Assembly (NCBI GenBank): GCA_963806535.1
Contig: CAWDYC010000007.1
Location: forward strand, 32,001-96,000
Direction of reading: 5' to 3'
DNA length: 64,000 nucleotides
Origin: Candidatus Bathyarchaeota archaeon
GTDB lineage: Archaea; Thermoproteota; Bathyarchaeia; Bathyarchaeales; Bathycorpusculaceae
How positions within the stretch are numbered: position 1 is the stretch's first letter; each line of letters begins with the position of its first letter. Positions 17,411 through 45,177 of this stretch are shown here, piece after piece. Position numbers and translations under genes: made by a program. The notes below the pieces were generated by a model. The model saw only the letters and a program-made list of their open reading frames with translations, was not told where the DNA came from and made no database searches.

Positions 17411-17846
17411 TTACAATTTTTGTTTATTTCTAAATCGCAATGCCTCAACAAGAAAAATAACTGCAGAAACAACTGTCACCACTGTTAAAAGCCAAAACGA
17501 TTCTTGAATGGGGTCGTTTAAAATCAAATGAGGAACCAAAATTGCAATCTCTGAGATCAAAACTCCCAATAAAAACAAAGCCGAATATTGCAAAGCTAGG
17601 CAAAAGGGTTTTTCCTACCCAGACATAGCCTTTCATGTTTACTTTTTCCTTAACAACGTAATTTCCATATTCGTCTTTAACAACCAAACCTAAATCCAAA
17701 AGTTTCTGAAGGTTTCGATAAGCAACGCTTGGGCTGCTAAGGTTGGCTCCGCGCATCAAATCTCTGGGTCCAACAGGCTTTCCCATCTTGACCATGTAGA
17801 CGTAAGTTTGAAATGTCGTTGCATTCAGTTCTTCGTCGGGTTGCAA
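17411..17846 (-). CDS. Winged-helix protein with two C-terminal TM helices, one frameshift
   Basis: GKPVGPRDLMRGANLSSPSVAYRNLQKL; paralog of the intact gene at 37257-37712. Confidence 0.75.
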
Positions 17847-23393: not shown

Positions 23394-24468
23394 TTGACAA
23401 ATAAAGGTCCTTTACTTATGACTTCTTGGAGGGCTACAGGTGCTTGCAATGCCCGATGTAAATATTGTAATGTTGATGCTTCCGGCAAGCGATCGTCCCA
23501 GAGAAATGACAACAAAAGAAGCCCTACATTTGGTTGATGAAGTACACAGTTTTGGTGTAAGATGGTTCGGCCTGAAAGGTGGAGAACCTTTGATGCGTGA
23601 AGACATTTTTGAAATTGTCACCTACGCAAAAAACTTAGGATTAAATGTTTGCCTACTAACCAATGGATGCTTTGTAGATGGAAAAATTTACGATAACTTG
23701 GTCAAGAATCAAGTTTGGACCTCAGTAAGCATTGATGGACCTGAAGAAATCAATGATCAGTTGAGAGGAAAAGGTTCATACAAAAAGGCGTTGGCAGCAA
23801 TCGAGAAGTTGTCGCAAGGTAAAATCCTAAACGGTTTAGCATGTGCAATTACATCCATTAACTACAAGCATTTAGACCATGTCGCCGAGTTGGCTGACAA
23901 ATATCATGCAAACTTTGTCTGGTACAACCATCTAGTTCCAAGCGGCAGAGCAAAAGAAACAATGGAACTAACCCCGACGCCAGAACAATATGAATGGACA
24001 CTTAACCACATATGGGATATAACCCAGAAGTACGATGGAAAGTTTGAAGTACATGTTCATTGCCCACATTTCGCTCGAGTGGTAAAGCAGAGAAACATAC
24101 CAAACTTTGACGAATGGTATCAACACAAGTTTCACGGCAAATGCACTTACTTTGCCTTCGGCGGATATCTAAGCGTCACAGAAAATGGCGATCTAATACC
24201 TTGCTTTTACACTGATCTTAGACCTTCTGAACCAATGATGCTTGGCAACATACGTGAAAAAAGCCTCACAGAAGCTTGGAAAGAAGTTCAAGAATCAAAG
24301 TATTATAGAAGTTTCCAGGACAAAAACGTTTTGAAAGGCAAATGCGGAGTCTGCGAATATCGTGAACTGTGCGGAGGTTGCAGAAACAGAGCTTATGCTT
24401 ACACTGGAGACATTTACGAATCTGACCCAGCATGCGCTTATGTGCCTGAGAGTCTACGCAAAAAATAG
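23394..24468 (+). CDS. Radical SAM/SPASM protein, one frameshift near 23490
   Basis: TTG at 23394 gives ...WRATGACNARCKYC (CxxxCxxC); then GGEPL, SIDG and SPASM motif CGVCEYRELCGGCRNR. Confidence 0.85.
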
Positions 24469-24557: not shown

Positions 24558-26799
24558 ATGAACAAAATACTGTTATTTGCGTTGTCTTGTTAGCTGCGGT
24601 TTTAGCCTCAGGTGTTTCAGGAAGTTTTGTTAATGGAACTAACCAGCAGAGCGCTATATCGTGGCCTATGTTCCACAACGATCTATCACATTCTGGCTTC
24701 TCGAATTCTTCGGTCGCCAAGAACAAACAAAACACTATGGAAGTTTAATACCGGAGGCCAAGTTGGGTCACCTTCAGTAAGTGATGGTGTGGTATATGTT
24801 GGTTCATACGACCATAAGATTTACGCTTTTAATTCCTTCAACGGAGCGTTAATATGGAATGATTCAACGGGTGGCATAGTAATTTCTCGTCCTGCAATTG
24901 CAGGCGACATTGTTTACGTTGGTTCTGAAGACTACAAACTCTACGCCTTAAACGCGACTAATGGAAATCAGCTTTGGACTTACAAAACTGGTTATTATGT
25001 TGATTCCGATCCAGCAGTTGCTAACGGCGTTGTCTATTTTGGTTCTGAGGATAAGAAAGTTTACGCACTCAATGCCACATCGGGCGAATACCTTTGGAGT
25101 TATGTCACTGGTGACAAAATCATGCTTTCGTCTGTTGCGGTGAGTGATGGCTTAGTTTACATTGGCTCGTTAGATCACAATATCTATGCTATGAACGGTA
25201 CTGATGGCAAGCTTGTTTGGAGTTACAGAACAGGCGACCAAATAATTTCTACACCAGAAATTGTTGGCGACGTCATATACGTGGGTTCATTGGATCATAA
25301 CCTATACGCTTTAGACGCTTCCGATGGAAAGCTAAATTGGAACTTCACAGCAGATGACGCCATCTATTCCTCTCCAGACGTTTCAAATGGCTTAGTCTAT
25401 GTAGGCTCATTAGACGGCAAAGTTTACGCGTTAAACATTTTAGATGGCAAAGATGTTTGGAACTACAAAACAGGGGCTGCAATAGCGTCTTCTCCAACAG
25501 TTGTCAACAATGTAGTCTACATTGGATCGGATGACAACAATGTTTATGCGTTAAAAGCTTCAAACGGCGAATTTTTGTGGAGTTATAAGACAGGCGATCA
25601 AGTGATTTCTCGACCTGCTGTTGCTAGGGACATGATTTTTGTTGGTTCATGGGATGGCACATTTTACGCGTTAAACGCTAAGAGTAGGTAATCTCGTTTG
25701 GAGTTATGTAACTGGTGGCGAAATTGATTCGTCTCCAACAGTAGCAGACGGCTTGGTTTATGTGGGCTGTCATGACGGCAAAATATATGCTTTGAACGCT
25801 TCCACCGGAATGGTGGGTTACAACTCGGAGATGCATAACAGCGTTGTATGGAGCTATGCAACTGGAAATATGGTTATGCTTTCTTCACCTGCAGTTGCGA
25901 ATGGAGCAGTTTATGTTGGCTCTTACGACGGCAATGTTTATGCTCTTAATTCGTTGACAGGAACATACTTGTGGAGCTTTAAAACAGACGGTCCAGCGAT
26001 TTCGTCTCCAGCAATCTATAAGGGGGTGGTATACATAGGCTCTGAGGACCACAACGTTTACGCTCTAAACGAGACAAACGGCAACCTTGTTTGGAAATTC
26101 ACTACCGGCGACATGATAATGGTCTCTTCGCCCGCTATTTCAGACGGAAAAGTTTTCATCGGTTCAAACGACCATAAGATCTATGCGTTGGATGCATCTA
26201 ATGGAACTTCTATCTGGAATTATACTACAAACGGTTTTGTTGTTTCTTCTCCGAGTGTTGCAGCTGGACTAGTCTATGTTGGTTCATATGATCATGAGAT
26301 TTATGCTTTAAATGCCACAACTGGGCATGCTGTATGGAATTTCACAACAGGCGGTGTTGTCGCCTCATCTCCAGCCATCGCAAACGGTATTGTCTACGTA
26401 GGTTCAGGAGATAACAGAGTTTATGCTTTGCATGCAGCCAACGGAAAAATGGTGTGGAGTTATTCAACTGGAGGAGAAGTGTCTTCCTCGCCTGCCGTAT
26501 CAAACGGGATAGTTGTTGTAGGCTCGTATGATGGCAAAGTTTACGCTTTTGATAGCATAAATGGAGCTTGCATTTGGAGTTATGCAACTGGAGAAATGGT
26601 TGTTTCTTCGCCGGCAATAGCTAATGGTTTGGTTTACATTGGGTCATACAACCATATGCTCTACGCGTTTGGTTCTTCTGAGCACAAACAAACTTATTCC
26701 GCAACTTTTCCGATCGTTATCATACTGATTTTGGCGGCAATAGCACTCATCGCAATTCTGCTGGCTACAGTGCTCTATAAAAAGCGACAGAATTCATAA
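24558..26799 (+). CDS. Secreted, membrane-anchored PQQ-type beta-propeller repeat protein (frameshifts near 24715 and 25690)
   Basis: Signal peptide and WPMFHND in the frame starting at 24558; about 16 repeats of SSP.V..G.VYVGS.D..VYALNA..G...W; C-terminal TM plus KKR. Confidence 0.85.
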
Positions 26800-29978: not shown

Positions 29979-30992
29979 TTGGAACTGAAGGTTGAAAAAA
30001 CGAAACAAATTGACGAAACCGATTCCAAGATTCTAAATACACTTTTAACAGAATCACGCACAAGTTTCACTGAATTAGCCAAAATATGCGGCATATCCAT
30101 AACAGCAACAATAAGAAGGTATAATCGTTTAAAAAAAACAGGCATAATTTGTGGAGAAAACATGCACCTTAACCCTTTAAGTGTGGGTTACGAAAGCATA
30201 GCGGAAATCGGCATTATGACAGATTTAGCAGACAAAGAAAAAGCCGCACAAGCAATAAACAAGATACAATCCGTAAGAATTGAAACCTTCATCGAAAGCT
30301 CGTTAGGGAAATATAATATATATGGTCAGTTAAGGGCACGAAAACTAGATGAATTAATGCGACTAGTCCAAAGAATAGACATTAAACCATTTACAAAAAG
30401 TTTAGACATTTTAATTTTTGCTGATTTATGGAATAATCCTTGGCATCCAGAAAATCTTGTTGCTAAGCCGTCTGAATGGGAAAATTTTATTATAAGAACT
30501 AGAAAGTCAATACCCAATTTTGAACACGTAACCTTAGATGAGATAGACAAACGTATAATGAAAATGTTAATGGAAAATTCGCGGATAGCATTCAAAGACA
30601 TTGCAGAAAAAAATAAAATTTCAACAAAAAATGTTATTCAGAGATATCAATTTCTTCGAGAAAAAAATGTTCTCAATCTTTCAACAATATCAATTGATCT
30701 TTTCAAGATAGGTTATAATGCAATATTAGATATTTACATAAACGTCGACAACAGAGGACCCCTACATGAGGTCGAGACGCAATTACTTCAGACACCCAAT
30801 TTAGTCTTTTGCGCTAAATATGTTGGCGGAGCGTATGATCTTAGAGTAGCAATTATTCTATCGAATTTTAAGGACGTCTTTCGATTAAAAAAACGAATTA
30901 ATTCAATAGAAAACATCAGGAAAGCAGAATTCTATCTGCATGAAATTCCAGGTCCTTGGCCAACCGATATTTTAGGCCCAACTCTTTTGTAG
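29979..30992 (+). CDS. Tandem-domain Lrp/AsnC transcriptional regulator
   Basis: Two HTH modules (IDETDSKIL..ESRTSF and LDEIDKRIM..NSRIAF); divergent from the surface protein gene. Confidence 0.88.
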   Translation: MELKVEKTKQIDETDSKILNTLLTESRTSFTELAKICGISITATIRRYNRLKKTGIICGENMHLNPLSVGYESIAEIGIMTDLADKEKAAQAINKIQSVRIETFIESSLGKYNIYGQLRARKLDELMRLVQRIDIKPFTKSLDILIFADLWNNPWHPENLVAKPSEWENFIIRTRKSIPNFEHVTLDEIDKRIMKMLMENSRIAFKDIAEKNKISTKNVIQRYQFLREKNVLNLSTISIDLFKIGYNAILDIYINVDNRGPLHEVETQLLQTPNLVFCAKYVGGAYDLRVAIILSNFKDVFRLKKRINSIENIRKAEFYLHEIPGPWPTDILGPTLL

Positions 30993-31230: not shown

Positions 31231-32506
31231 CTGGGTCCGTAGAACGCCTAAACAAACAGACAAAAACATTTCAAGGATTCATTACGGCTGGATTTGCGCA
31301 ACCGGTGGATTAAGTTCACGATTCGTTTATGCAACAGCTGCGTCAACGCTGCCGCTAGTTTTGGTAGAAGTTGAAGGAGGGCTGGGAATATCGAATGCTC
31401 AAGCAGGAGCTATATCAGCCACGTACGGGGTCCTTTTCATTATTAGTGCTCTTTTCTGGGGAATATTAGCCGATAGAATAGGATTGAGGAAATCGTTAAC
31501 GATAGCTTGCCTAATTCTATCGATTGGAACATTAGGTATGGGAACAATAAATTCAACTGTTATGGGAATGGTATTTTATTCACTTATTGGATTCGCGGCT
31601 GGAGCACCAATAACTCTAAGCGCAATGCTCACGGGGGCATGGTTTGATAGACGCAGAAGAGGCATAGCACAAAGTTACATCAGCAGCACTGATTCTCTTT
31701 GGATGGCAATGTTGGGAATTACAGTACCAATAATCATGCTCATTTATGGTTGGAGAAATGTTTGGTACATATTAGGCGCAGTGAGTCTTGTCTTGTCTGG
31801 CATAGTATATGTCCTAATAAGAAATAATCCCAGAGAAAAGGGTCTATCTCCCTGTGGGTCACCATTGAAAGCGGCAGCCAACATTATAGAAGCAATTCCA
31901 CAAACAGTTCCTCAAGAACAAGTAAGGAGCAGAGATTTACTTAAAATGAGAATAACATGGCACCTAGGCACAATGTTTATTTTGACTGTTTTCATACTCA
32001 CAACACCCACGTTTTTTGTTGTCACTTACCTTATGACGGAAGTTGGACTGACGTCGGTTGAAGCCGGTGGTGCATTCAGTATTTTTTTGATATCAATGAT
32101 GCTTGGTGGTTATGTATGGGGGTTTATATCCGATCGTGTACCGAGAAAATATGTTGTATCGACTTGTTCCATTTTGTACGCAGTGTTACTTCTAGCCTTG
32201 GTAGGCTTCGGGAAGGAAACAGAGGGTATCTATGTTATAATTGGTGCAATGGGCTTTGCAATAGGAATCCCTTCAGTGACGTTTGCAATGATTTCAGACT
32301 ACTTCCCTTTAAAAGTTGTTGGAACCGCATCAGGATTAATAAATGCCATAAGCGGAGTAGGTTTCATATTGGGACCTTTAATCGCAGGAAATATAGCAAC
32401 AACGACTGGAAGCTTTGTTCCAGCTTTCCAAGTAACTGCTGTAGTGGCAGTTGTGTTAGCAGTAGTATCATTAGCATTAAGACAACCAATATCTCACTCA
32501 ACTTGA
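31231..32506 (+). CDS. MFS transporter
   Basis: GILADRIG, WFDRRRG and GFISDRVP motifs, about 12 TM segments. The frame is open upstream of 31361 (RIHYGWI); the true start is uncertain, possibly CTG at 31231 with one extra C. Confidence 0.88.
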
Positions 32507-32664
32507 TAAGATGCACTGAAACAAACAAGGCATCAATCTGTTGCCAGTATTTCTTGTAGCAGTGCTAAATATGTCGCTTAAGCAAAATAGCTAGTTGAGA
32601 CCTTCTTAACGTAAACTTTATTATGTTATCAAACCGTTTAAAACTCCAATCAAGGGAAAACGTC

Positions 32665-33969
32665 ATGACAAAAGTTTCAGAGCTCCAAAAAGGCAAGCCA
32701 GAAGTTTACGAGACACGAGAAAATTGGCCACCCTACACTTACAGGGACTATCCGGGTATAGAACCAGAAACCTACAAAGCCTTCATGAACTTTTTAAATA
32801 CTGAGAACACATCAGGCAGATTAATGGAACTCCAGCCTTGGATTTCTGTTTGCGATTCAAGATGTGCCTTCTGCTATTTCCCAACAACTGCCACAAGCAA
32901 GGTAAAGATAGAACCTTACCTTGAACTGCTCAAAAAAGAATTGATGATGTACGCTAAAACCAAATATGTGAAGACGAGCATGTTTGATGAAATAGTTTTA
33001 GGCGGCGGAACACCAAGTGTCTTGGCTGCTGAGCAAATGATTGATTTAATCGACTTCTGTAAAGCAAACTTCAACATTAACAAGGAATATTTCATTAAAG
33101 TCACTGGTTCCTCAAAAACATTGGCGCTTCCAAAAATCGATAAACTGGCTAAGTATGGGGTTTATCAGATGGACATGGGCGCTCAAACCTTTGATGATAA
33201 ACTAAGAAAAAACCTATGCTTACCTGACAACGCTGCAGACGTAGAAAAAGCCATTCGGCATGCCCGAAAGCTCGACCTTTGTGTATGTGTGGATTTAATG
33301 TATAATCTTCCAGGGCAGACGATGGAAAGTTGGATCAGCACACTCAAGAAGGCAATTGAACTTGACGTCGAGATTGACGCTTACTCGTTACATGTCGATC
33401 CAGGCACCACGCTTGAAAAGATGATTAAGACAGGGGTCTCTCCTCCACCAGGTGATGCCGAATATGAAAAAGAAATGTACTTAACAGCTTACAAAATGTT
33501 GACTGGGGCTGGCTACAAGGCAGTAGGTCACGACCGTTACAGTCGCGTTGAATGGCATATGCGAGAGAACTGTTTAAACGGTTGGCCATGGGGCGGTATT
33601 TTAACAACTGGGGCAGGTTGCTTCATGGGGTATCTACAGCAGTTTTCATATTCTAACCTTGAAAACATAAACGATTACATGAACACCGTGAAAGATGGAA
33701 AACTGCCTATCAACAGGCTTTCTGAATCTACGACTGAAGACATGATGAGACGAACCATGACAAGGCTATATTTACGCCTGCCAGTCAGCAAAGAAGAGTT
33801 CATGCAAAAATTCGGAACCACACCCGAAAAAGTGTTTCCAAAGCAGCTTCAGAAACTAAAAGATAAAGGATTAATTGAAATCGACGAGAAAGAGGTTAGA
33901 TTAACCAAGTTGGGCGAAGTTTGGAAAGGCAATATCGCTTGGGAATTTGCACCTAACCAAGCAAAATAA
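32665..33969 (+). CDS. HemN-like (class C) radical SAM protein
   Basis: CDSRCAFC, GGGTPS, GAQTF, DLMYNLPGQT and C-terminal RLTKLG. Confidence 0.88.
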   Translation: MTKVSELQKGKPEVYETRENWPPYTYRDYPGIEPETYKAFMNFLNTENTSGRLMELQPWISVCDSRCAFCYFPTTATSKVKIEPYLELLKKELMMYAKTKYVKTSMFDEIVLGGGTPSVLAAEQMIDLIDFCKANFNINKEYFIKVTGSSKTLALPKIDKLAKYGVYQMDMGAQTFDDKLRKNLCLPDNAADVEKAIRHARKLDLCVCVDLMYNLPGQTMESWISTLKKAIELDVEIDAYSLHVDPGTTLEKMIKTGVSPPPGDAEYEKEMYLTAYKMLTGAGYKAVGHDRYSRVEWHMRENCLNGWPWGGILTTGAGCFMGYLQQFSYSNLENINDYMNTVKDGKLPINRLSESTTEDMMRRTMTRLYLRLPVSKEEFMQKFGTTPEKVFPKQLQKLKDKGLIEIDEKEVRLTKLGEVWKGNIAWEFAPNQAK

Positions 33970-34014
33970 TTTTTTTGTTTTTTATTTAAACTAAAAAAGA
34001 AAAGAAAATGGGAT

Positions 34015-34698
34015 TTACTTGTGCCTCATCGGCTGTATACCATACCAGGTCATTACTTTTGCAAGAATTGGCACGATTACTCCTAAAGCAATGCTCGGAA
34101 TGAATGCTAACGTGAATCCGTACAAAAGAGAGCCAGCAGTAACAGCGCCATTTGATTCAAGCCAAAGGTTATGAGCCATAGTTCGTGCCGGTGAAAGTGA
34201 ATAATTGTAGTTCATGAATAGTTGAATTAATGCGGTAATTATTGCTGCTGTTAAGCCTGCACCAAGCATTCGTTTGAAATTTGATGAGCCATTGTTTAGT
34301 GCTCCTGCCATGTAGCCGATTACGACAGCGTTAACAAGGTAGAAAAGCATGCTTAGGTCGCCGAAGAAGTTGTAATTGACAGCTCCTGAGGAATATACTG
34401 CATAAACCGCGGTGAATTGACCCGCGTTTGCTAAGTAGTAGATGCCTCCCATGATAAAGCCTGCTGCACCACCTGCCCATTTATTCCAGAGTAAGCCCAG
34501 TACTAGTGGAATGCCTAGAACGATCATTTGAGCAAAGCCAGAGGTTAGAATAACAGCGATAACGTTTGATTCTCCGAATATATGTTGAGTTCCGCTTACG
34601 TTGACATAGACAGCCAAGAGAAAGATCAGTAATACAAGAATTAATGGTATGATTACGCCGTTGAATATGTCTGTCAGTTTAAATTTTTCTGTTTCCAA
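34015..34698 (-). CDS. Polytopic membrane protein of unknown function (ECF S-component-like size and topology)
   Basis: About 6 hydrophobic helices; GLLWNKWAGGAAGF. Confidence 0.65.
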   Translation of the reverse strand: METEKFKLTDIFNGVIIPLILVLLIFLLAVYVNVSGTQHIFGESNVIAVILTSGFAQMIVLGIPLVLGLLWNKWAGGAAGFIMGGIYYLANAGQFTAVYAVYSSGAVNYNFFGDLSMLFYLVNAVVIGYMAGALNNGSSNFKRMLGAGLTAAIITALIQLFMNYNYSLSPARTMAHNLWLESNGAVTAGSLLYGFTLAFIPSIALGVIVPILAKVMTWYGIQPMRHK

Positions 34699-34887
34699 TT
34701 TTTATCCCTTGACTTATTTACATAGTGGCAAGTTTATAAGCTTAATGCTTGAAAGCTATCGCAATAATTAGTCTAAGATTAAGAAATACTGGACTTAATT
34801 ATGCTCGCAAAAGAAATTTTTGAAATTCTTTACCCAACAAAAGTGGTCAACAAAAATAAAAAAAAGATTAGGGATTTATTTTTCAGT

Positions 34888-37044
34888 TTAAGCGTTTTCT
34901 TCTGCGCGTTTCTTTTTGAGAGTCGCCAACTTAGCTACTTCTTCTTTCTTTACTTCACCTTTAGCTAAGTCTAAGCCCTCGACCAGTTTTGCACCGACAT
35001 CTGACCGCACTATTACAGTTGAACGTCCATCTTCGCTGCCGACTGAGCCAACTGCTACATCAGCATATTTTGAAGCGAAATCAGGACAGCTTAAGCACCC
35101 TTTTTCTACAGCTGCGCCTAATTCTTTAACAGGTATTGAGTTTTCTTTTCCATCAATGACTACAATGAATTTGCCTTTGCGAATCTGAGTTTTTTCTGCT
35201 TTGTCTAGATCAACGTTTAGTAAGCGCTGTACTTCTGATTTGAGGTCTCTATAATTGAAGTCTTCGAAGCAGAACAAGCCTATCATTGTCAATTCTAGAT
35301 CTGGACAGTCACTTAGCATTTGCATCTGGATTCTTCGCGCTGCACGAATTTCGCATGGTGTACCAACAATCGCTATTTTTCGTTTACCTTTTGCAATCAA
35401 TTCGCCAAGCTTTGACATCATTCGCACTCTAACATATTTGGTGCCGCTAGCTTTGACGATGTCTTCGACGTTTTCAGCGACGTATGATTCAGCTAAGTAG
35501 CCTTGGCTTTTTCGAACTACGATTGCCGCATCAAACAAGCCTTTCTGCATACCTGAAACTAGTAATGCTGTAACCACTCCGCCGTCTTGTCCGTTATAGG
35601 AGCTTTTGGCTGAGAAAATTTCTTTGTAGACGCCTAAGTTTTCATCTTGTGTTCCGCTAAGGAATGTTTGCTCTATGACTTGTGCATCTTCTTCATTCAA
35701 TGGATAGTTGAGTATGTTGCTCTTCAGATCTATTCTTGCTGGGCAAACGTAATTGCAGCTTCCACATCCGGCGCAGAAGTCTGCGTCAAGTGCCATCAGT
35801 TCTTTTATGTTGTTTTTATCACGTGCCTGCTTAATCAATATTGGACTTAGTCTATTGCAACAGATACGCATACAAGCGCCACATCTAATGCAAGGGGTGG
35901 TTTTTACGTTTGTGAAGACTTTTCCTTTTGGTAACTTTGGTTCTTTTCCACCTTCAGCGGGTTTAAGTTTTCCTATTTTGTCAAGTTTAGGTACAGTTAG
36001 GTTCATGATGATTAATGCAACAAAGGAGGCTCCGAAGAACTGTAAGTAAGTCTGCATTAGTACGGTTATGATTGCTAAGCCGGTTCCGAAAATTGCTTGT
36101 CCTGTGTAGGTTAGAGGTGTGGTTGCAGGATCTGTTGCCATAAAGAACGCTAAGAATATTGAACTTCCGATGAACAACTCGAACAAAAGTCTAGTAGTGA
36201 GGTCTGAGTCACCATAAGCAAAAGCTAAGATCAGTGACATTACAGCGACAACTACAAGGTAGCTTACGGTTATTCTCCATTTAACGTATCTACGTGCTAT
36301 GGCGAAGAATGCTATACCAACTATGATTACTGCTATAGCTGAAGCACCGCCTGGCCAGCCGTGGAACTTATCTAAGAACATTGTCTGAAGCAAGTTGGTT
36401 GTGTCTGTAGTTGGTGCTTTGAGGTTAGCGTTAGCGAAGCAGTTGATTACATAAGAACCAAACCCTGGATATCCAGTACCTCCATTGCCATTTACGACAT
36501 TGACTAATCCAATAGGGCCTGATAGTGCAGGGACCTGAAGCACAGAGCTTTTTAGGTGATCTAATGCCAATAGCACTGTGCCAAGGAAAGGTATCATAAC
36601 AACGAATTTTGCAGCTGCAGCAGGATTAACGTATTTTCTTCCAGTGGTGCCGACAAGTTTTTTGAAAATCACTAAGCCAATTATCGAAATCAAAGCAACA
36701 TAGAGGAAACAGTCAGGTGCTTGTAAAGGAAGTACTTTATCCATGGCCATAGTAGGCATGCCGAGAGAGTAGGAGTCAGTGACAATTAATCCAAAAACAG
36801 CGGCAGACATGACATTAAGCGGGCTATCGGCGGTAACCTTGTACAATAAAGCATCAAGTCCAACGGCAAAACCTACAGCGATTATAGCATTGATACCTAA
36901 AGTAAGACCTAGATTCCAACCTGAAGGGGTTTTCTCAGCAGACCATATAATTGAGGTGATAACAGTGAGTGCGAGTAGCGCTATGAATGTGTAAATCATT
37001 AGTTTATCTTTAGTCATCGATGAATATTCTTTCGGTTTAGACAT
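34888..37044 (-). CDS. Fusion protein: RnfD/NqrB-like membrane domain + 2[4Fe-4S] domain + FrhB/FdhB F420-binding domain
   Basis: NPAAAAK and FFMATDPATTP (RnfD); CIRCGACMRICC and CAGCGSCNYVCP (RnfC-type dicluster); GQDGGVVTALL, VGTPC, IGLFC, GCLSCPDF and DVAVGSVGS (FrhB). Confidence 0.85.
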   Translation of the reverse strand: MSKPKEYSSMTKDKLMIYTFIALLALTVITSIIWSAEKTPSGWNLGLTLGINAIIAVGFAVGLDALLYKVTADSPLNVMSAAVFGLIVTDSYSLGMPTMAMDKVLPLQAPDCFLYVALISIIGLVIFKKLVGTTGRKYVNPAAAAKFVVMIPFLGTVLLALDHLKSSVLQVPALSGPIGLVNVVNGNGGTGYPGFGSYVINCFANANLKAPTTDTTNLLQTMFLDKFHGWPGGASAIAVIIVGIAFFAIARRYVKWRITVSYLVVVAVMSLILAFAYGDSDLTTRLLFELFIGSSIFLAFFMATDPATTPLTYTGQAIFGTGLAIITVLMQTYLQFFGASFVALIIMNLTVPKLDKIGKLKPAEGGKEPKLPKGKVFTNVKTTPCIRCGACMRICCNRLSPILIKQARDKNNIKELMALDADFCAGCGSCNYVCPARIDLKSNILNYPLNEEDAQVIEQTFLSGTQDENLGVYKEIFSAKSSYNGQDGGVVTALLVSGMQKGLFDAAIVVRKSQGYLAESYVAENVEDIVKASGTKYVRVRMMSKLGELIAKGKRKIAIVGTPCEIRAARRIQMQMLSDCPDLELTMIGLFCFEDFNYRDLKSEVQRLLNVDLDKAEKTQIRKGKFIVVIDGKENSIPVKELGAAVEKGCLSCPDFASKYADVAVGSVGSEDGRSTVIVRSDVGAKLVEGLDLAKGEVKKEEVAKLATLKKKRAEENA

Positions 37045-37256
37045 TTTACAATCTCCTTAATTTCTGCCTTCAATTTAGGGCTAGTTGGTTTTATAAGACT
37101 TTCCCAAAACGTAATGGCAGTTCTATATTTAGTATAGAAGATATAGGAAATAGAAAAACTTTGACTCTTTTTACTTGTGATGTTAGAAAGCAAAATCTGA
37201 TAAGCAAAGCTAATACGGATAAACTGCCAAAGTCAATTTGTAAGTGAATCTTCAGC

Positions 37257-37712
37257 ATGACTAAGGCGAATAACGTTGAACTTGAAGGAACTACATTAAA
37301 CGTTTATTTACACGTGGTAAAAAAGGGCAAACCAGTAGGCCCAAGAGATGTCATGAAAGCTTTGAACCTAAGCAGCCCTAGCGTAGCCTACAGACACTTA
37401 CAGAAACTGGAAGACCTAAGCTATCTTCAAAAAAATGATTACGGCGAATACATAGCAAAAAACAAAGCACCCATAAGAGGTTACTTTTGGCTCGGTCGAC
37501 GTTTACTGCCGGTAATGTGGCGTTACTCCATTGTTTTCCTAGGCATTTTAATAGTAGAGAGTTATGTTCTTGCTGTGCATTTTCCAGTTGAGACTTATGA
37601 GTTTAAAGTTTTCTTTTTGCTGCTGATGCTCATTACCGGTTTAGCATTGATCATTTTTACAATTGAAGGATTTCTTCAAAACAAGCGTAAACGAAAAAGC
37701 ATAGATGAATAA
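37257..37712 (+). CDS. Winged-helix protein with two C-terminal TM helices
   Basis: GKPVGPRDVMKALNLSSPSVAYRHLQKL followed by two hydrophobic segments. Confidence 0.8.
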   Translation: MTKANNVELEGTTLNVYLHVVKKGKPVGPRDVMKALNLSSPSVAYRHLQKLEDLSYLQKNDYGEYIAKNKAPIRGYFWLGRRLLPVMWRYSIVFLGILIVESYVLAVHFPVETYEFKVFFLLLMLITGLALIIFTIEGFLQNKRKRKSIDE

Positions 37713-37863
37713 ACACCTATAAGACTGCAAATTTAGGTCTCCTAAGAAAAATAACAATTATATATTGAACCAAGCTTCCTCAGTTCACTAAGAAACAGAA
37801 AATCGGTTTCCAAGAGCAAGTTTTATATCGACTATGCTAATTTACCTTGACAATGTGAATTCA

Positions 37864-38979
37864 ATGAATAATTCAATGAATCCAATTACTGCCCCGTTAT
37901 TCATGGTTGTTTGGCGATGTACCCGCGGTTGTGTGGGCAGTTGCACATATTGTAGTTATATCAAAGAATATGCTAAAGACAAAGAACTAAACACTGAGCA
38001 AGCCAAACACATGGTTGATGAAATGGCAGAGTTCGGCTCACAATGGCTAGGAATCAGCGGCGGAGAACCCCTGATTCGACCTGACGTATGGGAAGTTATT
38101 GAATACGCAGAGAAAAAGCATGACATGAAAGTCAGCTTGATCACAAGCGGCTATGCATGGGACGAGAAACGCTTTGATTTATTGCGCAAATATGAAGTCC
38201 ACACTGCCATCAGCATTGATGGAGATAAAGAGTCAAATGACAAAATCAGGCGCAAGGGCGGCTATGACCAAGCCGTGCATGCAATGGAGAAACTTAGCAG
38301 CGTGGGCCTACTAGATTGCTTAGTTACAACCATGACTAAGTTTAATATTGACAAGATGGCTCATCCGGCTATGTTGGCGGAGAAATACAGTGCCCGCATG
38401 CTCGTTTACCATAACTTGGTTCCAGTTGGTAGAGCAGGAGAACATATGGAGGAAATAGCTCCATCACCAGAACAATACGAAACGGCATTCAACGAAATCT
38501 ATGATATCCAACGCAAACTCTACGGAAAAGTAAAAGTCAACGTCTACGCACCCTTCTACGCCCGTATCGTACGCCAAAAAAACCCAGTTGACTTCTGGCA
38601 ATGGTACAATGAAGGCTACCTCGGTAAATGTACCATCGGCGGCAACTACATTGGCATAACCGAAAACGGCGACTACCGAAGCTGCGGCTTCCACGAAGGC
38701 TACCGTATCGGCAACGTCAAAGACAAGAAACTGCGCACCGCATGGGATGAATTACAGAAGAGCGAACTGCACCTAAAGTTGCGCGACAAAAACAACCTCA
38801 AAGGCAGATGCGGAATTTGTGAGTACCGAGAAATCTGCGGCGGATGCCGAACACGCGCTGAATACTATACAGGCGACCTATTCGAATCAGATCCAGCATG
38901 CAATTACATACCTAAGGTGCTCCGCGAAGACCCCAAAATACTTGAAGAAATGCGCAAAACCGCGTGCAAAAAACAATAA
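37864..38979 (+). CDS. Radical SAM/SPASM protein (paralog of 23394-24468)
   Basis: CVGSCTYC, SGGEPL, SIDG, YHNLVPVGRA and CGICEYREICGGCRTR; start uncertain (37834-37876). Confidence 0.9.
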   Translation: MNNSMNPITAPLFMVVWRCTRGCVGSCTYCSYIKEYAKDKELNTEQAKHMVDEMAEFGSQWLGISGGEPLIRPDVWEVIEYAEKKHDMKVSLITSGYAWDEKRFDLLRKYEVHTAISIDGDKESNDKIRRKGGYDQAVHAMEKLSSVGLLDCLVTTMTKFNIDKMAHPAMLAEKYSARMLVYHNLVPVGRAGEHMEEIAPSPEQYETAFNEIYDIQRKLYGKVKVNVYAPFYARIVRQKNPVDFWQWYNEGYLGKCTIGGNYIGITENGDYRSCGFHEGYRIGNVKDKKLRTAWDELQKSELHLKLRDKNNLKGRCGICEYREICGGCRTRAEYYTGDLFESDPACNYIPKVLREDPKILEEMRKTACKKQ

Positions 38980-39042: not shown

Positions 39043-41363
39043 TCAGGTTTGTGTTTGGTTAAAGTTATTCAGAATTTTGAAGATGTCATAACGGTCGTTT
39101 GAGTAGATTAGTTGCAGAAATTTGCAGCGAATCATGTTAGGATCAAGTTGGTTTTTGTCATAAACTATGAATTCAATGTTGTTTTCGGCAATGTAATTTT
39201 TGTAATCTCTTGAAGATACTGTAAATTGGTCAGGTTTGTAGTTAAAGAGGCTTTGCAGATTGTTTTGCTGCAGTGCCGGGAAACTGTTTTTGGTAAGAGT
39301 TAGAACTTGGTATTGCCGTGCAATTGTCTGGTTGGCGTTAATTTCGTTGAATTGATATTGGAATCTTACAGCATCTATCTGCCTGTTTGTCAAGGCACCG
39401 ACGTTTCCCCAGTCGGGTAAATCGGTGAAGTTAAAAGCATATGCAAGCTGATTTTTGTCGTCGTAGAGTCCTATGTAATTATCCGTTGAATCAGAGTTCG
39501 TAAAAGGTGCAACCGCCCATTCTTTTCCAACTGGACCACCAATAATTTTTGAAGGCAACGTCCCATGGATTAATCCAATTCATAAGTTGAGGTATCTGAG
39601 CTTTCTCAAAGTCAAATTGAAGATTAAAAGAAGTTGTCAAATACAGAATCACGTTGGATATGTCGCTTTGCAAGGGGTGTTACTGCCCAAGATATACCTA
39701 TCGCGTAACTGTCATTTTGAACAAGCATTGTTTGCGTTAAGTCTACATAATCGTTCGAGTATGTCAACGTTAAATTCTTTGGGTAGCTTTGGTCATTAAA
39801 AGAAATTTCTTTTTTCAAATCAGATAAAGGAAACGTGCAGTTTTTGCCGTTTTGTATAAAGGAAAGAAAATCTCCGTCACTTTTAGAAACTGATATTTGA
39901 TACCACACTTGATCTATCGAGACATAATTTTCGTCGGTAACTAAACCTTTAGCTTCGTAGGCTCTTATCAAGTTTTGCGGATCTTGGATTTCATAAGATA
40001 AACTCAAAACTGATTCCGCAATTTCTGTTCTTTGAACAGTCGGATCAGTTTGCGCAATTATGTTTTTTCCCGAAAAGGTTGAAAACCAAAAGCCCGGAAT
40101 TTCTGTGACGACGGCTGTGGCGTTACCCGGATAGTTTTGGCTTAGCCAGACTCCTGCATCACAGGCTTTTATGTCAGTTGTCGAGTAGTAAACGCTAGCT
40201 TCCATGATTTTTCCATACACTGTGTCTGAACGAAAAACAAGAGATAATGAGAACAAAATGATTATAGTAATAGTCAGGATTTTTAACCAATTTTTCCTAA
40301 AGATTTGTCTATTTTTGGAGTAAGATGCTTCGAATTTATCCATTATGAAGACAAGAGTAACCCCAGCAAAAATTGCCATCGGGGGCGTCAAGTAATAAAT
40401 GAACCACTGAAATGGCATAAAAAAACCAATCAGGTAAGATTCAGCAAAAAATAGAGGAACAAAAAAACTAAGCATCAAAATAAGATAAAAAATTGGTTTC
40501 TTCTTTTGTTTTAAAATGTAGTAGGAGAGGATTATTCCAGCTAAAGCAAAGAAGAAAATAAAGCCGAAATTTTCTATGAAAGAACTGAAATTTACGTATG
40601 GAATTTGGTAAGCGTAAGTTTTTATCTCAAAAAATACGTATTTTATTACTAAGTCAAGGTAACCTATCATCGCTTGAAAATAATAAAGGAAGAAAGCAAT
40701 TCCCCCGCCTAAAATAAGAGCTATTATAACTTTAAGGTATGAGCCTCTAGATTTTATTAACATGAAAAGGAGAACTGGAGGTAATATGAAAACGGCAAGG
40801 AAGGCAGCAAGCTGATGAGACAATACTAGGGAAAACGCAGCAAAAAAAGCCACCATAAGGTATCCAAAATGCTCTGCTGCTAAAGTAGAATAAAGTAAAA
40901 CTAAAAGCATAAACACCAGAGCAAGAACCGTGGTGTAACCGCCAAACGCATTTACCTCATACATAGGAACACACATCAACAACAAAACGGCCGCGACAGC
41001 GCCGACTTTTTTACTGAAAAATTTACTTGCAACTAGGTAAACGGAGAGGAAAAGAAGCCAATCAATTATCACCGCTAAAGCCTTTACCAAAAAAATTAGT
41101 TGCCCAATATTACTTGCGCCACTTAAAGAAATGAACATTGCAAGAACAAGTTCGTAAAGCGGAGGAGTCCAACCTAAGTTAACTAAAGGTATTTTTCCTG
41201 TTTCAAGGAAGATTTGGGCTTTCTTCAAATGCACGGAAGAGTCATTTCCTAAAACCACACCATTCATTGAAATAAAGGTAAAGAAAATGCTGAAAATTAG
41301 GACTGAGAAAACTATGATAAACAGGATTTCAATTTGTCGCTCTTTGGACAATTTACCCATCAA
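39043..41363 (-). CDS. GT-C-like polytopic membrane protein with extracellular domain (frameshifts near 39550-39670)
   Basis: GNDSSVH, TPPLY and LSHQL; about 12 TM segments followed by a soluble domain; paralog of the upstream gene. Confidence 0.72.
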
Positions 41364-41371
41364 GGTTACAG

Positions 41372-43696
41372 CTAACTCCCCGCGATATTGATGTTCTCTT
41401 TAACCTTAAAGATGGCTATTTCACTGTTAATAAATACAAGGCTAAAGTTGGGGTCCTGCAGAAATTTTGGTTGGATTTCAATATTTCTGCAAACAATGTA
41501 AGATACATTGTTGGTTTGCATCGCAGTTCTGTAGTCAAACCATTCCTTAAAATCTACAGTTGCTTGGATTTTAGTGGAATTTAAGTTGGCAGCAATCACA
41601 GGGAGGAAATAGTTGTTTATGCTTTCGCTATTTTTGTAAATATCAGGGTTGTTATCGGCGGAGTAAGCACTTGCTAAAATTTGGATTTGACCGTATGAAA
41701 AGTTTTGGAATTGATATTCTAAATCGATTAAACGTGGATCTGCAACTTTTGTAGTCACATTTGGCTGATTAACGTTGAAAACTAATTGACCAAACGTTTT
41801 CACGCCTACATCTAATAAAGCAATTGTTTTTTTGTCATCGAATGGTATTTGCGTTCCCTTGCTTTGAACATCGATATTATTCCATAGCAAGGAGACGCCC
41901 GGAATAGTGCTTTCTATAGTTGAAGTCAAGTTAACGAAAAGCAATCCCTTGTAAACAGTTGTAAACTGTGTGTAATTAAAGAAATCGTTGCCTCTAGTAA
42001 CAATAATTGTCTTATGGTCATTGAAATTCTCAAAACTCATCCCTTCCACCGCGAGCTGATCCAAATAGACGGATTGAGGGATTCCGTTAATCGTGTACCT
42101 GATTTCGTTTTGACTACTGTCAAAAGTAAAAAATGAAAATGGGAAATAAGTCCAGTTGAGCGTGGCCAAAATTTCAGGATTATGTCTTGCTATATAGCCA
42201 CCATCTTCTCGAACCTGTACTAAATTGTTATCAATTAAGTAATCGGTGTCAAGGAGGTAACTGGCATTCTTTGCATATGGAAGCTCTCTTGCAAGGGTCA
42301 AATATTGAGGGTCAACAGCACTCAATGTTGGCCTCAGGGCAAATCCACCTAACCACCAGCCATAGAGTGCATCAGAAACAAATACGGATCCGGGTTGAGT
42401 ATTTTGTTTGATCCAATTAATCGCTTGGTAACCAGGATTATCCATAACTTGATAGAAACTTTGGTCTGTAGTGCCTTGCCAAGGAGTCATAAAAATTGGA
42501 AAGGAAAAGATGCATATGAGCACTATAACTACTATGAAAGAAGCATAGAGTGTTTTTTGGGTTATATGGCTTAAGACCTTATCTAGTGTTTTGTGTACGT
42601 TTTTTGTTGTTTTCTGAAGTTGACTCGTTAAAATATGGTAATTATTTATAATATGTGCTAAGAAAAAGGAACCTCGTTCCATGAACATGCCAATAAGTAG
42701 CATAACTGGTAAAACAAGGAAGTAAAGAAACCTATTGTAATCTACAATGAGCCCAAACAGGAATCCTTGAGTAAGCACAGTGGGAACAAGTAACCACATG
42801 AAAAGCAGTAACGCTGGAAGGGAAAGAAATCGACCTCTATATTCTTTTGACAAGAAGAAGAACAAGAACGTACAGGCGAAAAGCGGCAATATTAAGGTGA
42901 GAGGAAGCAGTCTTGTGGAAAGAATTGCTGAGTTAATTGCAGAGATATCAATGAACGAAGAGTTAGAACTCAAATAGGCTGGAACAGCGTTTACCAAAAA
43001 AGGCGAAACGAGAACAGCCCCAAGAACAAGCGGAAGTAGCCAATAGAATATATGTTTTCTTGAAGTGCCAAACGTTTTTGGAGAAATCATAGTCACTAAT
43101 ACTGTTGCAGCCGTTATGGCTACGAATACGGCCGCACTCAACGAGTGTGTGAGGTAAATTGAACCTACTAAAATAGAGGTTGAGACAAGAAAGGGTGTTA
43201 GCGTAAACCTATCTTTTTGCAAGTACAAGTAGAAAGCTACTGGAATTAAGAGCAGAGTAATTATGTTAGGGTAGCCTCCCCAAAGAAGTATTTCCATGTC
43301 GGGTCTAGAGATTGCAACTATGAAAGCTACTATAAAGGCACCCGATTCTGTCCAGCAGCTTTTTGTTATTAAGAAAGCGCCGAGAACGAGGAGGGAGGAA
43401 AACAAAGCTACAATAACAGTTTGCGCTATGTAACTAGGCATTCCAGTCATTATTATAATTCCTGCAGCGAAAATGTGGTATCCTGGAAAAGTCAAAGATA
43501 AGCCACCTCCCATCTGGTAATTATTCCATAAAAAATTAGTATTACCCGATTGAGTTATTGAATTAATGACGCTGTTATGTAAGCCTATGTCTGCGCCTGG
43601 TGGATAAGAAGTCCACAGCATTATAATCATTCGGTAGGCGAAGGCAAAAGCAAAAATCATAAGTAGTAAGATATGTTTTCTGGTCGCTTTGAACAT
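41372..43696 (-). CDS. GT-C-like polytopic membrane protein with extracellular domain
   Basis: GADIGLH, FPGYH, WGGYPN, LTHSL and AINWIKQNT motifs. Confidence 0.75.
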   Translation of the reverse strand: MFKATRKHILLLMIFAFAFAYRMIIMLWTSYPPGADIGLHNSVINSITQSGNTNFLWNNYQMGGGLSLTFPGYHIFAAGIIIMTGMPSYIAQTVIVALFSSLLVLGAFLITKSCWTESGAFIVAFIVAISRPDMEILLWGGYPNIITLLLIPVAFYLYLQKDRFTLTPFLVSTSILVGSIYLTHSLSAAVFVAITAATVLVTMISPKTFGTSRKHIFYWLLPLVLGAVLVSPFLVNAVPAYLSSNSSFIDISAINSAILSTRLLPLTLILPLFACTFLFFFLSKEYRGRFLSLPALLLFMWLLVPTVLTQGFLFGLIVDYNRFLYFLVLPVMLLIGMFMERGSFFLAHIINNYHILTSQLQKTTKNVHKTLDKVLSHITQKTLYASFIVVIVLICIFSFPIFMTPWQGTTDQSFYQVMDNPGYQAINWIKQNTQPGSVFVSDALYGWWLGGFALRPTLSAVDPQYLTLARELPYAKNASYLLDTDYLIDNNLVQVREDGGYIARHNPEILATLNWTYFPFSFFTFDSSQNEIRYTINGIPQSVYLDQLAVEGMSFENFNDHKTIIVTRGNDFFNYTQFTTVYKGLLFVNLTSTIESTIPGVSLLWNNIDVQSKGTQIPFDDKKTIALLDVGVKTFGQLVFNVNQPNVTTKVADPRLIDLEYQFQNFSYGQIQILASAYSADNNPDIYKNSESINNYFLPVIAANLNSTKIQATVDFKEWFDYRTAMQTNNVSYIVCRNIEIQPKFLQDPNFSLVFINSEIAIFKVKENINIAGS

Positions 43697-44265: not shown

Positions 44266-45177
44266 ATGTCCTTTAAATTCAATACAAACCAAAATATCTA
44301 CACCATTGGAAGAGCGAAAGTCGGTGGTCAGCCAGGGGAATTACCAACCTTTTTGATTGGTTCCATCTTTTGGCTAGGTCAGAAAATGGTTACAGATGCT
44401 AACAAAGGTATCTTCGATGCCAAAGTTGCAGAACAAATAATCAATACGATGCAAACTCAAAGTGACATTACCGGTGTACAATTTGCTTTTGACATAGTTG
44501 GAACGACTGAATTAGCTTTTGAGAAATACATTGATTTCGTCTCAAAACACAGTGACGCACCATTGATGCTTGACGCAATGAGCCCAAAGACCCGTATGGC
44601 AGCAGCCGACATGGCAAAAAAGATGGGTCTTGCGGACAGGTGCCTCTACAACTCAGTTTACAAAGGCGTTACTGACGTAGAACTTGCAAAGCTCAAAGAA
44701 AGCGGAATTAAAATGTCAATAGTGCTTGCTGACGATCCGAAAGATACAACTCTCGAAGGCAAAATGAAAGTTATCCAAGAAGCATTAGCTTTAGCTGATA
44801 AAGCCGGAATCACAAAACCGCTAATTGACACAGCTATTCCCGCGTTTGCTCCAGACATGGGAACTGCAGTAAGAACCATACCAATCATGAAAGAAAAGTA
44901 TGGTCACCCAGTCGGCTTAGGCAGCGGAAACGTTGTAACAACAATGGGTTGGGTCAAAGCAAACGTTGCTAAAGAATTCCGCCCAGGATGCAGAACAGCA
45001 ACCAACGCAATAATGCAGGTAGCAGGCGCAAACTGGCTAATGATCGGTCCAGCAGAACAGGCAGAATGGATATTCCCAGCAGTCGCAGTAACAGACTCAT
45101 ACATTGCATCAGCAGCAGGCGACCTCGGCACAAGACCAGTTGAGGAATCACACCCGATATACAAGATGTTCATGTAA
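44266..45177 (+). CDS. mtrH: MtrH-family methylcorrinoid:tetrahydropterin methyltransferase (MtrH/MtxH/MtgA-like)
   Basis: FKF..Q....IG..KVGGQPGE.PT.LIGSIF, YNS, LIDT, GHPVG and HPI motifs. Confidence 0.88.
   Translation: MSFKFNTNQNIYTIGRAKVGGQPGELPTFLIGSIFWLGQKMVTDANKGIFDAKVAEQIINTMQTQSDITGVQFAFDIVGTTELAFEKYIDFVSKHSDAPLMLDAMSPKTRMAAADMAKKMGLADRCLYNSVYKGVTDVELAKLKESGIKMSIVLADDPKDTTLEGKMKVIQEALALADKAGITKPLIDTAIPAFAPDMGTAVRTIPIMKEKYGHPVGLGSGNVVTTMGWVKANVAKEFRPGCRTATNAIMQVAGANWLMIGPAEQAEWIFPAVAVTDSYIASAAGDLGTRPVEESHPIYKMFM

Follow-up and report, generated by a model that had tools for sequence, protein, structure and literature searches.

The fusion gene and its domains

The stretch of DNA considered here, referred to as the window, comprises 64,000 nucleotides of contig CAWDYC010000007.1 (positions 32,001 to 96,000 of the forward strand) in the Candidatus Bathyarchaeota archaeon assembly GCA_963806535.1. 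On its reverse strand lies a gene for a single 718-residue protein in which an RnfD/NqrB-like membrane domain, a ferredoxin domain with two [4Fe-4S] clusters (referred to as the dicluster domain) and a domain of the FrhB family follow one another (Table 1). This fusion is a real and conserved gene of Bathyarchaeia, and chance is excluded as its origin. On balance, and with modest confidence, it can be described as the coenzyme F420 (F420) type variant of a two-gene membrane redox module specific to Bathyarchaeia, which would feed reducing power from the cytoplasm into the membrane, probably for a radical-enzyme pathway. The parts found together are the RnfD-ferredoxin fusion, a protein with six transmembrane (TM) helices that may resemble the S components of energy-coupling factor (ECF) transporters, and radical S-adenosylmethionine (SAM) genes of the SPASM, HemN-like and B12-binding kinds.

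The open reading frame (ORF) starts with ATG and contains no internal stop. Along it, Pfam families score above their cut-offs for the membrane domain (NQR2_RnfD_RnfE, PF03116, residues 3-357, 120.4 bits against 27.7) and for the two halves of the FrhB part (FrhB_FdhB_N, residues 482-544, 55.8 bits against 22; FrhB_FdhB_C, residues 555-699, 123.5 bits against 23.3). No NCBIfam model passes its own cut-off on the 718-residue protein, all equivalogs falling below. The ORF and Pfam scans agree with a preliminary description of the locus, which had reported one uninterrupted frame with these three domains. The span that it assigned to the fusion, 34015-37044, has to be divided: the gene itself occupies 34888-37044, and 34015 is the end of the neighbouring 227-residue gene, which is the six-TM gene that was correctly seen to follow on the same strand.

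Of 8000 candidates scored when a clustered protein collection was searched with the fusion, 981 are relatives at E <= 1e-3; among these, all 120 that were listed carry the RnfD, FrhB_N and FrhB_C domains on one chain, at 53-94% identity. Their source names are Bathyarchaeota, plus one Hodarchaeota (P0112). In the tree, the relative named Hodarchaeota is placed inside a Bathyarchaeia clade. In a scan that took each species by a single genome, 226 relatives came up; the best 80 of them, together with the window copy, form the 81 loci counted below. The form with the FrhB domain (the long form) occurs at 23 of them, namely the window copy and 22 other loci, one long-form gene (L064) being divided between two ORFs. 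The other 58 carry a short form, about 455 residues in length, that stops after the dicluster domain.

Because independent assemblies carry the fusion, a chimeric assembly join is excluded. A stop or a chimeric join between the domains had been raised in the preliminary description as the possible undoing of the fusion; there is no stop, the fusion recurs in independent assemblies, and the domain-architecture search that was proposed there (NQR2_RnfD_RnfE with Fer4 and FrhB) finds the same arrangement in database relatives and in genome loci. A 151-nucleotide piece assembled from DNA runs matches positions 35657-35807 (about residues 413-462) with no differences and may come from the source sample. 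Literature searches, from which supplementary tables that may list such genes were left aside, found no description of an RnfD-FrhB fusion, in keeping with the earlier remark that no characterised protein of RnfD-[4Fe-4S]-FrhB architecture was known to its author.

Four contigs with the gene and its cluster bear the names Acidoferrum, Nanoarchaeia, Limnocylindrales and Sulfotelmatobacter (L006, L028, L040 and L072, respectively). They nest among Bathyarchaeia rows in the tree and are probably mis-binned.

Spread and evolution of the fusion

RnfD-like genes are present in 21 of 81 genomes of the order (a sample of genomes at least 80% complete), confined to two families, and in a class-wide sample they occur in 18 of 151 genomes and two of 30 families. 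The source genome (2.95 Mb in 12 contigs, 91.75% complete) holds three RnfD-like loci, the fusion and two more. The second is an intact short form of 438 residues on contig C6, which lies outside the radical SAM cluster and is 53% identical to the fusion. The third (contig C7:158630-159758) codes for RnfD alone and, through a frameshift or an assembly error, is read as two ORFs, of 134 and 245 residues; related genomes have intact RnfD-only frames of about 376-393 residues.

When the RnfD-plus-dicluster part is placed in a tree of 83 rows, at least six changes are needed to account for the long and short forms, and one deep clade, with 15 rows, has long forms throughout. The same clade reappears, with an SH-like approximate likelihood ratio test (SH-aLRT) value of 88, when a tree is built from the FrhB part (30 long forms and one outgroup). 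The short RnfD-ferredoxin fusions are 53-74% identical to the long form over residues 1-446 and share its gene neighbourhood. A single ancient fusion whose FrhB part was later lost several times would fit the trees, on a root that is not established.

The membrane domain and its flavin sites

Among solved structures, the membrane domain matches RnfD (8ahx_D at 2e-15, also 7zc6_D and 9eri_D) and NqrB (7xk3_B at 5e-8), and the NCBIfam model for RnfD, TIGR01946, scores 81.6 bits on the fusion (cut-off 207). The (S/T)GAT motif, to which flavin mononucleotide (FMN) is covalently attached in RnfD and NqrB, does not occur anywhere in the 718-residue protein. HMMER alignments pair the Vibrio cholerae NqrB sequence SGAT with S175-G-P-I178 (within ALSGPIG) and the Azotobacter vinelandii RnfD sequence TGAT with T190-G-Y-P193, the Thr being replaced in both cases, and the usual GETS pairs with G232-G-A-S235. 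The preliminary reading of ALSGPIG at the likely position agrees with the NqrB alignment, and GGAS is confirmed at the place of GETS. Across 83 family members, the flavinylation loop is rich in insertions and deletions and contains no invariant or nearly invariant Thr or Ser.

Riboflavin in NqrB is described as bound by N200, N203 and D346 (PMC9293633), and a further account lists contacts with G198, N200, A205, F342 and D346 and places the Na+ path of Na+-NQR in NqrB, with F338 and F342 as gate residues (PMC10643135). The NqrB residues G198, N200, N203, A205, F338, F342 and D346 map to G135, K137, N140, A142, F297, F301 and D305 of the fusion, all of which are invariant or nearly invariant in the 83 sequences. 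Five of the six positions of the riboflavin pocket predicted from this alignment are kept (G135, N140, A142, F301 and D305). Taken together, the alignments suggest that the covalent outer FMN has been lost and that the flavin pocket near the cytoplasm has been retained. In Rnf, this cytoplasm-near pocket of RnfD faces RnfC.

The outer loop that replaces the flavinylation site has conserved residues of its own in the 83 sequences: in and around it, H228 and W230 never vary, and H163, C202 and K226 hardly do. The aligned RnfD chains offer no equivalent of C202, K226 or H228.

The soluble domains and F420

The dicluster domain corresponds to the C-terminal part of RnfC, as the rnfC model TIGR01945 matches residues 378-443 with its positions 358-423 (of 435), covering the dicluster part of that subunit only. 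Its eight cysteines (385, 388, 391, 395, 424, 427, 430 and 434) are invariant in the 83 sequences. Four further cysteines in the FrhB part, C564, C592, C650 and C653, do not vary across 15 long forms and, by comparison with the family, would be the ligands of a [4Fe-4S] cluster belonging to the FrhB domain itself.

The best solved relative of the soluble part is the F420-dependent sulfite reductase Fsr (7np8_A, 1.1e-41), whose residues 10-320 align with residues 419-715 of the fusion, from the second cluster motif through the entire FrhB part. Next come FrhB chains, with E-values of about 1e-34, whereas HCAR (5dqr_A), which depends on ferredoxin, scores only 9.8e-7. Several NCBIfam models of this group score below their cut-offs: PRK09325 (188.4 bits, cut-off 269), TIGR03289 for frhB (156, cut-off 331.5) and NF040616 for FpoF (142.6, cut-off 475). 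In Fsr, a ferredoxin domain with two [4Fe-4S] clusters is described as standing before the F420H2-oxidase domain, and electrons as passing from flavin adenine dinucleotide (FAD) to the cluster of the oxidase domain and on to the two clusters of the ferredoxin domain (PMC10229431).

A second protein of the same genome carries a similar unit. The dicluster-FrhB part of the fusion is 51% identical over 368 residues to the C-terminal part of a 491-residue Fer2_4-Fer4-FrhB protein, encoded outside the window in an operon (contig C7:236182-245896) together with a NuoE-like protein of 155 residues and a NuoF-like protein of 645 residues. This operon, which fits the 'F420-Bfu' type that Schut et al. 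2022 predicted (PMC9304861) and that is not known to have been characterised, is followed by genes for CofC, a luciferase-like oxidoreductase, an ADP-forming acetyl-CoA synthetase-like protein (read by eye) and CofE.

The genome carries CofC, CofD and CofE, and CofE is present in all 81 genomes of the order. A correlation between the presence of FrhB and that of F420 genes was uninformative because of this universal CofE.

The preliminary description had F420 take over from nicotinamide adenine dinucleotide (NAD) at the reactive end of RnfC. As to position this stands, an FrhB-type domain being located behind an RnfC-type dicluster where RnfC has its NADH/FMN domain, and the comparison of E-values given above places this domain nearest to F420-dependent enzymes, Fsr and FrhB, and farther from HCAR; that F420 is the cofactor is presumed. 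The check for F420 synthesis genes that was proposed with it had a divided result, with CofC, CofD and CofE present and CofG and CofH not found.

The rest of Rnf

No genome matches were obtained for RnfA/E (PF02508), RnfG/NqrC-type FMN_bind (PF04205) or ApbE (PF02424), RnfB and full RnfC not having been searched for genome-wide. At the locus, no rnf genes were found among the nine flanking ORFs scanned with Pfam, nor by BLAST of the window ORFs of at least 100 residues against the locus families, which confirms the earlier remark that rnfA, B, C, E and G are not close by. Across the 81 genomes of the order, RnfA/E has no match at all and ApbE a single weak one of 20 bits, in a genome without an RnfD-like gene.

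The 'minimal or rewired Rnf-like complex' envisaged in the preliminary description is not supported by these results. The check for other rnf and apbE genes recommended there gave nothing in the genome with the three profiles; the FrhB domain is optional, 58 of the 81 loci doing without it; and the conserved neighbours are radical SAM genes, a candidate tethered regulator and envelope genes, not bioenergetic ones. The module is not an Rnf complex.

The six-helix partner

The gene directly beyond the fusion starts with TTG and encodes a 227-residue protein that has no cysteine and no Pfam or NCBIfam match. Its AlphaFold2 (AF2) model (predicted local distance difference test (pLDDT) score 80.8) consists of six long helices and one short one. 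When this model was compared with known structures using VIA-align, S components of ECF transporters made up 10 of the top 11 chains with Z scores of 8.0-11.4, values below about 13 being unsafe for helical bundles. The matches comprise PanT, ThiT, RibU, BioY, FolT and BtuM, with 4rfs_S (Z 11.4, root-mean-square deviation 3.3 A over 143 aligned residues) and RibU 5kbw_A (Z 10.5) among them.

A language-model search (Atlas) with the partner places an S-component cluster at rank 6 with a score of 0.88, and PF12822 (Pfam ECF_trnsprt) weakly matches two of 34 members of the partner family, with a best E of 0.014. A profile of the family finds 120 representatives among 1.84 billion, mostly fragments, and no bridge to the large S-component families. 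The family has conserved Trp, Asn and Gly motifs and no conserved His or Cys. No ECF T or A gene lies within the conserved cluster; two CbiQ/EcfT-type genes are located elsewhere in the genome. Together, the model comparisons weakly suggest an ECF S-component-like fold for the partner.

Kinship of the partner with RnfA/E or NqrD/E was considered and rejected, as it has no PF02508 match and no Cys for a bridging cluster, and none of these proteins occurs among the 50 listed fold matches. A complex prediction for residues 1-450 of the fusion (81 rows) with the partner (34 rows) returned a score of 0.00, which is no answer and speaks neither for nor against binding.

Upstream of the partner gene, the block of about 65 nucleotides listed in Table 1 is near-invariant DNA in 10 aligned loci whose proteins are just about 70% identical, and it contains a TATA-like element and a short palindrome. 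A search of positions 33900-37900 with Rfam for a riboswitch or other RNA gave no matches at E <= 1.

Relation to known systems

Four known arrangements come closest to the fusion. The first is the contact of RnfC with RnfD in Rnf (8ahx from A. vinelandii, 7zc6 from Clostridium tetanomorphum and 9eri from Acetobacterium woodii). The fusion has the RnfD-type membrane domain, its dicluster matches just the C-terminal dicluster of RnfC (9eri_C, 7zc6_C and 8ahx_C), and it joins both in one chain, in the order expected for a dicluster on the cytoplasmic face. It differs from Rnf in that RnfA/E, RnfG and ApbE were not found in its genome, the flavinylated Thr is missing, and an FrhB domain stands where RnfC has NADH/FMN-binding sequence. 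In Fsr (7np8 and 7npa), the N-terminal half shows the same succession of a 2x[4Fe-4S] domain and an FrhB-type FAD/[4Fe-4S] domain, and there too an F420H2 input module is described as fused to the enzyme that it feeds (PMC10229431). The acceptor in Fsr is a C-terminal siroheme sulfite reductase, whereas in the fusion it would be the N-terminal RnfD-like membrane domain, and F420 use is presumed here. FpoF and FqoF likewise have an FrhB-family domain that ties the F420 pool to a membrane complex (NCBIfam FpoF at 1.4e-41); they serve a membrane part of the complex-I-like kind, whereas the membrane part of the fusion is RnfD-like and belongs to the same single chain.

Bacterial NQR/RNF-like systems, as presented in the accessible parts of two reports (PMC8238504; bioRxiv 10.1101/2024.03.13.584918), also have a stand-alone NqrB/RnfD-like domain fused to a cytosolic input, a flavinylation Thr that is described as not conserved and a predicted one-way electron transfer across the membrane. 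According to the same reports, their input is an NqrF-type NAD-binding domain (PF00175), their partner an NqrC/RnfG-like protein flavinylated by ApbE, and their hosts Actinobacteria and members of the candidate phyla radiation (CPR). The fusion, in contrast, has an Fe-S and FrhB input, a six-TM partner that may be S-component-like, and archaeal hosts. PF00175 is not among its Pfam matches at E <= 0.1, and neither an FMN-binding (NqrC/RnfG-like) protein nor ApbE was found in the gene cluster or in the genome. The fusion fails defining features of each of these nearest systems and is best called a variant of the stand-alone RnfD-type conduit.

Proposed electron path and alternative explanations

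In the favoured reading, an F420-fed membrane module, cytoplasmic F420H2 would deliver a hydride to the FAD of the FrhB domain, and single electrons would then pass from the FrhB cluster to the two clusters of the ferredoxin domain, as in the N-terminal half of Fsr. The next station would be a flavin, bound without a covalent link, in the riboflavin-type pocket of the RnfD-like domain; this pocket would face the cytoplasm, at the position where RnfC feeds or drains RnfD in Rnf. From this flavin the electrons would flow in one direction, to an acceptor that lies within the membrane or on its far side. The acceptor could be a cofactor or substrate held by the six-TM partner or, alternatively, a lipophilic compound on which the radical SAM enzymes encoded nearby act. 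Where the FrhB domain is absent, another donor would supply the electrons.

A number of observations weigh against this reading or parts of it. Even the Fsr crystal showed no F420 (PMC10229431), the F420 site of the fusion is not readable from its sequence, and the core function of the module needs no F420, the FrhB domain being dispensable at 58 of the 81 loci. FO synthase was not found in the genome, in which CofH and CofG reach just 21-23 bits, nor was Mtd; CofH is present in none of 31 genomes of the family at E <= 1e-30. F420 use by the FrhB domain is likely, but as no FO synthase was found, F420 would depend on salvaged FO or on some other synthase. F420 biosynthesis genes were also reported missing in Bathyarchaeota in the accessible part of a study of metagenome-assembled genomes (MAGs) (PMC9534799).

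On the side of the membrane domain, the RnfD and NqrB alignments of the outer loop place the FMN motif at different positions, and N200 of the NqrB riboflavin site is a Lys (K137) here. The full-length AF2 model (15-row alignment) has a pLDDT of 60.1, with the linker and dicluster below 50, and the docking of its domains is unreadable. As for the partner, its S-component likeness is drawn from scores that helical bundles can reach by chance, Foldseek against the PDB found nothing at E <= 1e-3 (best E 0.076, with the same proteins first), and the conserved block before its gene suggests that it probably has a regulated promoter or operator of its own.

Three other explanations bear on how the module might work. 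The least probable is a minimal ion-translocating F420H2:acceptor oxidoreductase that replaces Fpo/Fqo or Rnf, the flow of electrons driving, or being driven by, Na+ or H+. The gate residues of NqrB, F338 and F342, align with the invariant F297 and F301, and D346 with D305 (PMC10643135), as such a pump would have it; in a genome in which RnfA/E were not found, another coupling site would also be welcome. Coupling in NQR and Rnf depends on covalent FMN and on an electron loop that RnfA/E or NqrD/E form together with RnfG or NqrC, and here RnfA/E, RnfG-type proteins and ApbE were not found and the Thr for covalent FMN is missing. The spread of the gene in the class sample (2/30 families, 18/151 genomes) suits an accessory function over a core bioenergetic one, the FrhB part appears to have been lost repeatedly, the neighbours are radical SAM and envelope genes, and no futalosine-pathway gene for a quinone acceptor was found. 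Menaquinone was rejected as an acceptor on the same ground, since the genome has no MqnA/D-type gene, other quinone routes lying outside the search. An explanation that is also decidedly unlikely makes the module a dedicated supplier of low-potential electrons for the [4Fe-4S] clusters or cob(II)alamin of the neighbouring radical SAM/B12 enzymes, with the membrane potential perhaps lifting the electrons of F420H2, as Rnf does for nitrogenase. Radical SAM enzymes require an external reductant, and among the genes clustered with two to three radical SAM families in the majority of the 81 loci, the module is the sole redox carrier kept. The window itself forms a radical SAM island: its B12 radical SAM genes number four intact and one broken, next to three of the SPASM type and a single HemN-like one. 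With donor and acceptors alike in the cytoplasm, though, only energy coupling would call for a membrane domain, and the parts for that are missing; nothing points to contact of the module with a radical SAM enzyme, and the dicluster between the FrhB and membrane domains suggests flow into the membrane domain, not to soluble clients.

The remaining explanation, which is improbable, concerns the input: the FrhB-type domain would work without F420, exchanging electrons with ferredoxin or another carrier in the manner of HCAR or BciB, or acting on a pathway substrate, for example a tetrapyrrole-like one. The FrhB family includes ferredoxin-dependent tetrapyrrole reductases (HCAR and BciB). HCAR 5dqr_A does match the soluble part at 9.8e-7, FO synthase was not found, the NCBIfam F420 equivalogs were all missed (frhB 156 of 331.5 bits, FpoF 142.6 of 475), and for each of the three radical SAM types nearby, the closest curated family is one of tetrapyrrole enzymes (ChuW/HemN, AhbD/NirJ and BchE), although the scores lie far below the cut-offs. 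Against this, BchE, AhbD and HemN are common best matches for unassigned members of their superfamilies. The E-values place the domain some 35 orders of magnitude closer to Fsr and FrhB than to HCAR, its closest paralogue adjoins CofC, CofE and a luciferase-like gene, and CofE is universal in the order.

A more far-reaching form of the F420-fed module, which is unlikely, would make the RnfD-ferredoxin(-FrhB) protein and its S-component-like partner a new two-subunit redox machine. The partner, holding a ligand of the flavin, corrinoid or tetrapyrrole type at the membrane, would then replace flavinylated RnfG or NqrC, and electrons from F420H2 would drive an undescribed anaerobic radical SAM pathway whose substrate is either bound to the membrane or imported.

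Bathyarchaeia rank with the most abundant archaea of anoxic sediments and peat, and their membrane electron handling is poorly understood. A genome survey noted stray 'RnfD' matches in Bathyarchaeia MAGs without the remaining Rnf, as its accessible part reports (PMC9534799); such matches belong to a conserved stand-alone module, one variant of which has its own F420-type input domain. RnfD/NqrB would be usable as a solitary electron conduit in archaea, with no covalent flavin, in parallel to the bacterial NQR/RNF-like systems, which are themselves predictions. A testable entry is offered by the single 718-residue protein, with residues D305 and N140, a defined partner gene and candidate client radical SAM genes.

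Gene neighbourhood

Neighbouring genes were counted by all-against-all BLAST of the ORFs at the 81 loci, many of which end at contig ends, so that the counts are lower bounds. The six-TM gene is present at at least 68 loci, mostly directly downstream of the RnfD fusion, followed in frequency by SPASM radical SAM genes (at least 66), HemN-like radical SAM genes (at least 61), B12-binding radical SAM genes (at least 46), paired large polytopic membrane proteins (at least 36) and a small protein with a helix-turn-helix (HTH) and two TM segments (at least 29). Surface proteins with a beta-propeller of the pyrroloquinoline quinone (PQQ) type are frequent neighbours. Long and short forms have the same gene context.

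Table 1. Positions of the fusion gene, its domains and other features in the window
Feature	Position	Strand	Remarks
Fusion gene (718 aa)	34888..37044	-	Single ORF; Pfam domains RnfD-like, 2x[4Fe-4S] and FrhB
RnfD/NqrB-like membrane domain	35974..37038 (residues 3-357)	-	Pfam PF03116 NQR2_RnfD_RnfE
2x[4Fe-4S] ferredoxin domain	35725..35907 (residues 380-440)	-	Pfam Fer4 families
FrhB-type FAD/[4Fe-4S] domain, presumed F420H2/F420 site	34939..35643 (residues 468-702)	-	PF04422 and PF04432
Spacer	34699..34887	-	Oligo-T run after the fusion gene, then near-invariant block of ~65 nt before the six-TM start
Membrane protein of 227 aa, conserved partner	34015..34698	-	Homologue in 68/81 loci
HemN-like radical SAM enzyme	32623..33969	+	Convergent with the six-TM gene; Pfam Radical_SAM and HemN_C
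Divergent gene (151 aa), candidate tethered regulator	37257..37712	+	Two hydrophobic segments, weak winged-helix N-terminus
Radical SAM/SPASM enzyme	37834..38979	+	Pfam Radical_SAM and SPASM
Two polytopic membrane proteins (579 and 774 aa)	39624..43696	-	C-terminal soluble parts; 12 and 9 hydrophobic segments
MtrH-like methyltransferase (~302 aa)	44266-45177	+	Cluster edge, 12/81 loci
B12 radical SAM gene	7488-8846	-
B12 radical SAM gene	9079-10464	+
B12 radical SAM gene	10632-12035	+
B12 radical SAM gene	13077-14531	+
Fifth B12 radical SAM gene	15761-16869	-	Broken into three ORFs
Second copy of small HTH-2TM gene	17445-17846	-
Further SPASM radical SAM gene	30-1022
Further SPASM radical SAM gene	23440-24468
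Beta-propeller gene	24612-26799		Apparently two ORFs

The divergent 151-residue protein is hydrophobic at residues 82-100 and 113-131; a representative of its family gives weak HTH matches, and the window copy has no Pfam match. The two polytopic proteins match nothing in Pfam or NCBIfam. The SPASM enzyme next to the fusion has AhbD as its best NCBIfam match (201 bits, cut-off 500), and the HemN-like enzyme matches ChuW/HutW (185 bits, cut-off 400) and HemW (150 bits, cut-off 205). Overall, ChuW/HemW, AhbD/NirJ and BchE/HpnJ come nearest among curated radical SAM families, with scores far short of the cut-offs, which is a weak hint at tetrapyrrole-like substrates.

An alternative haem pathway, suggested by a NirDL-like double-HTH gene (29979-30992) and a major facilitator superfamily (MFS) gene (31361-32506), was considered and rejected, each of these families being present at two of the 81 loci. 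At the edge of the cluster, a small B12-binding protein of about 142 residues is encoded at 19 of the 81 loci (for example L005, L036 and L052), and with the MtrH-like protein it would make up a corrinoid methyl-transfer pair beside the B12 radical SAM genes.

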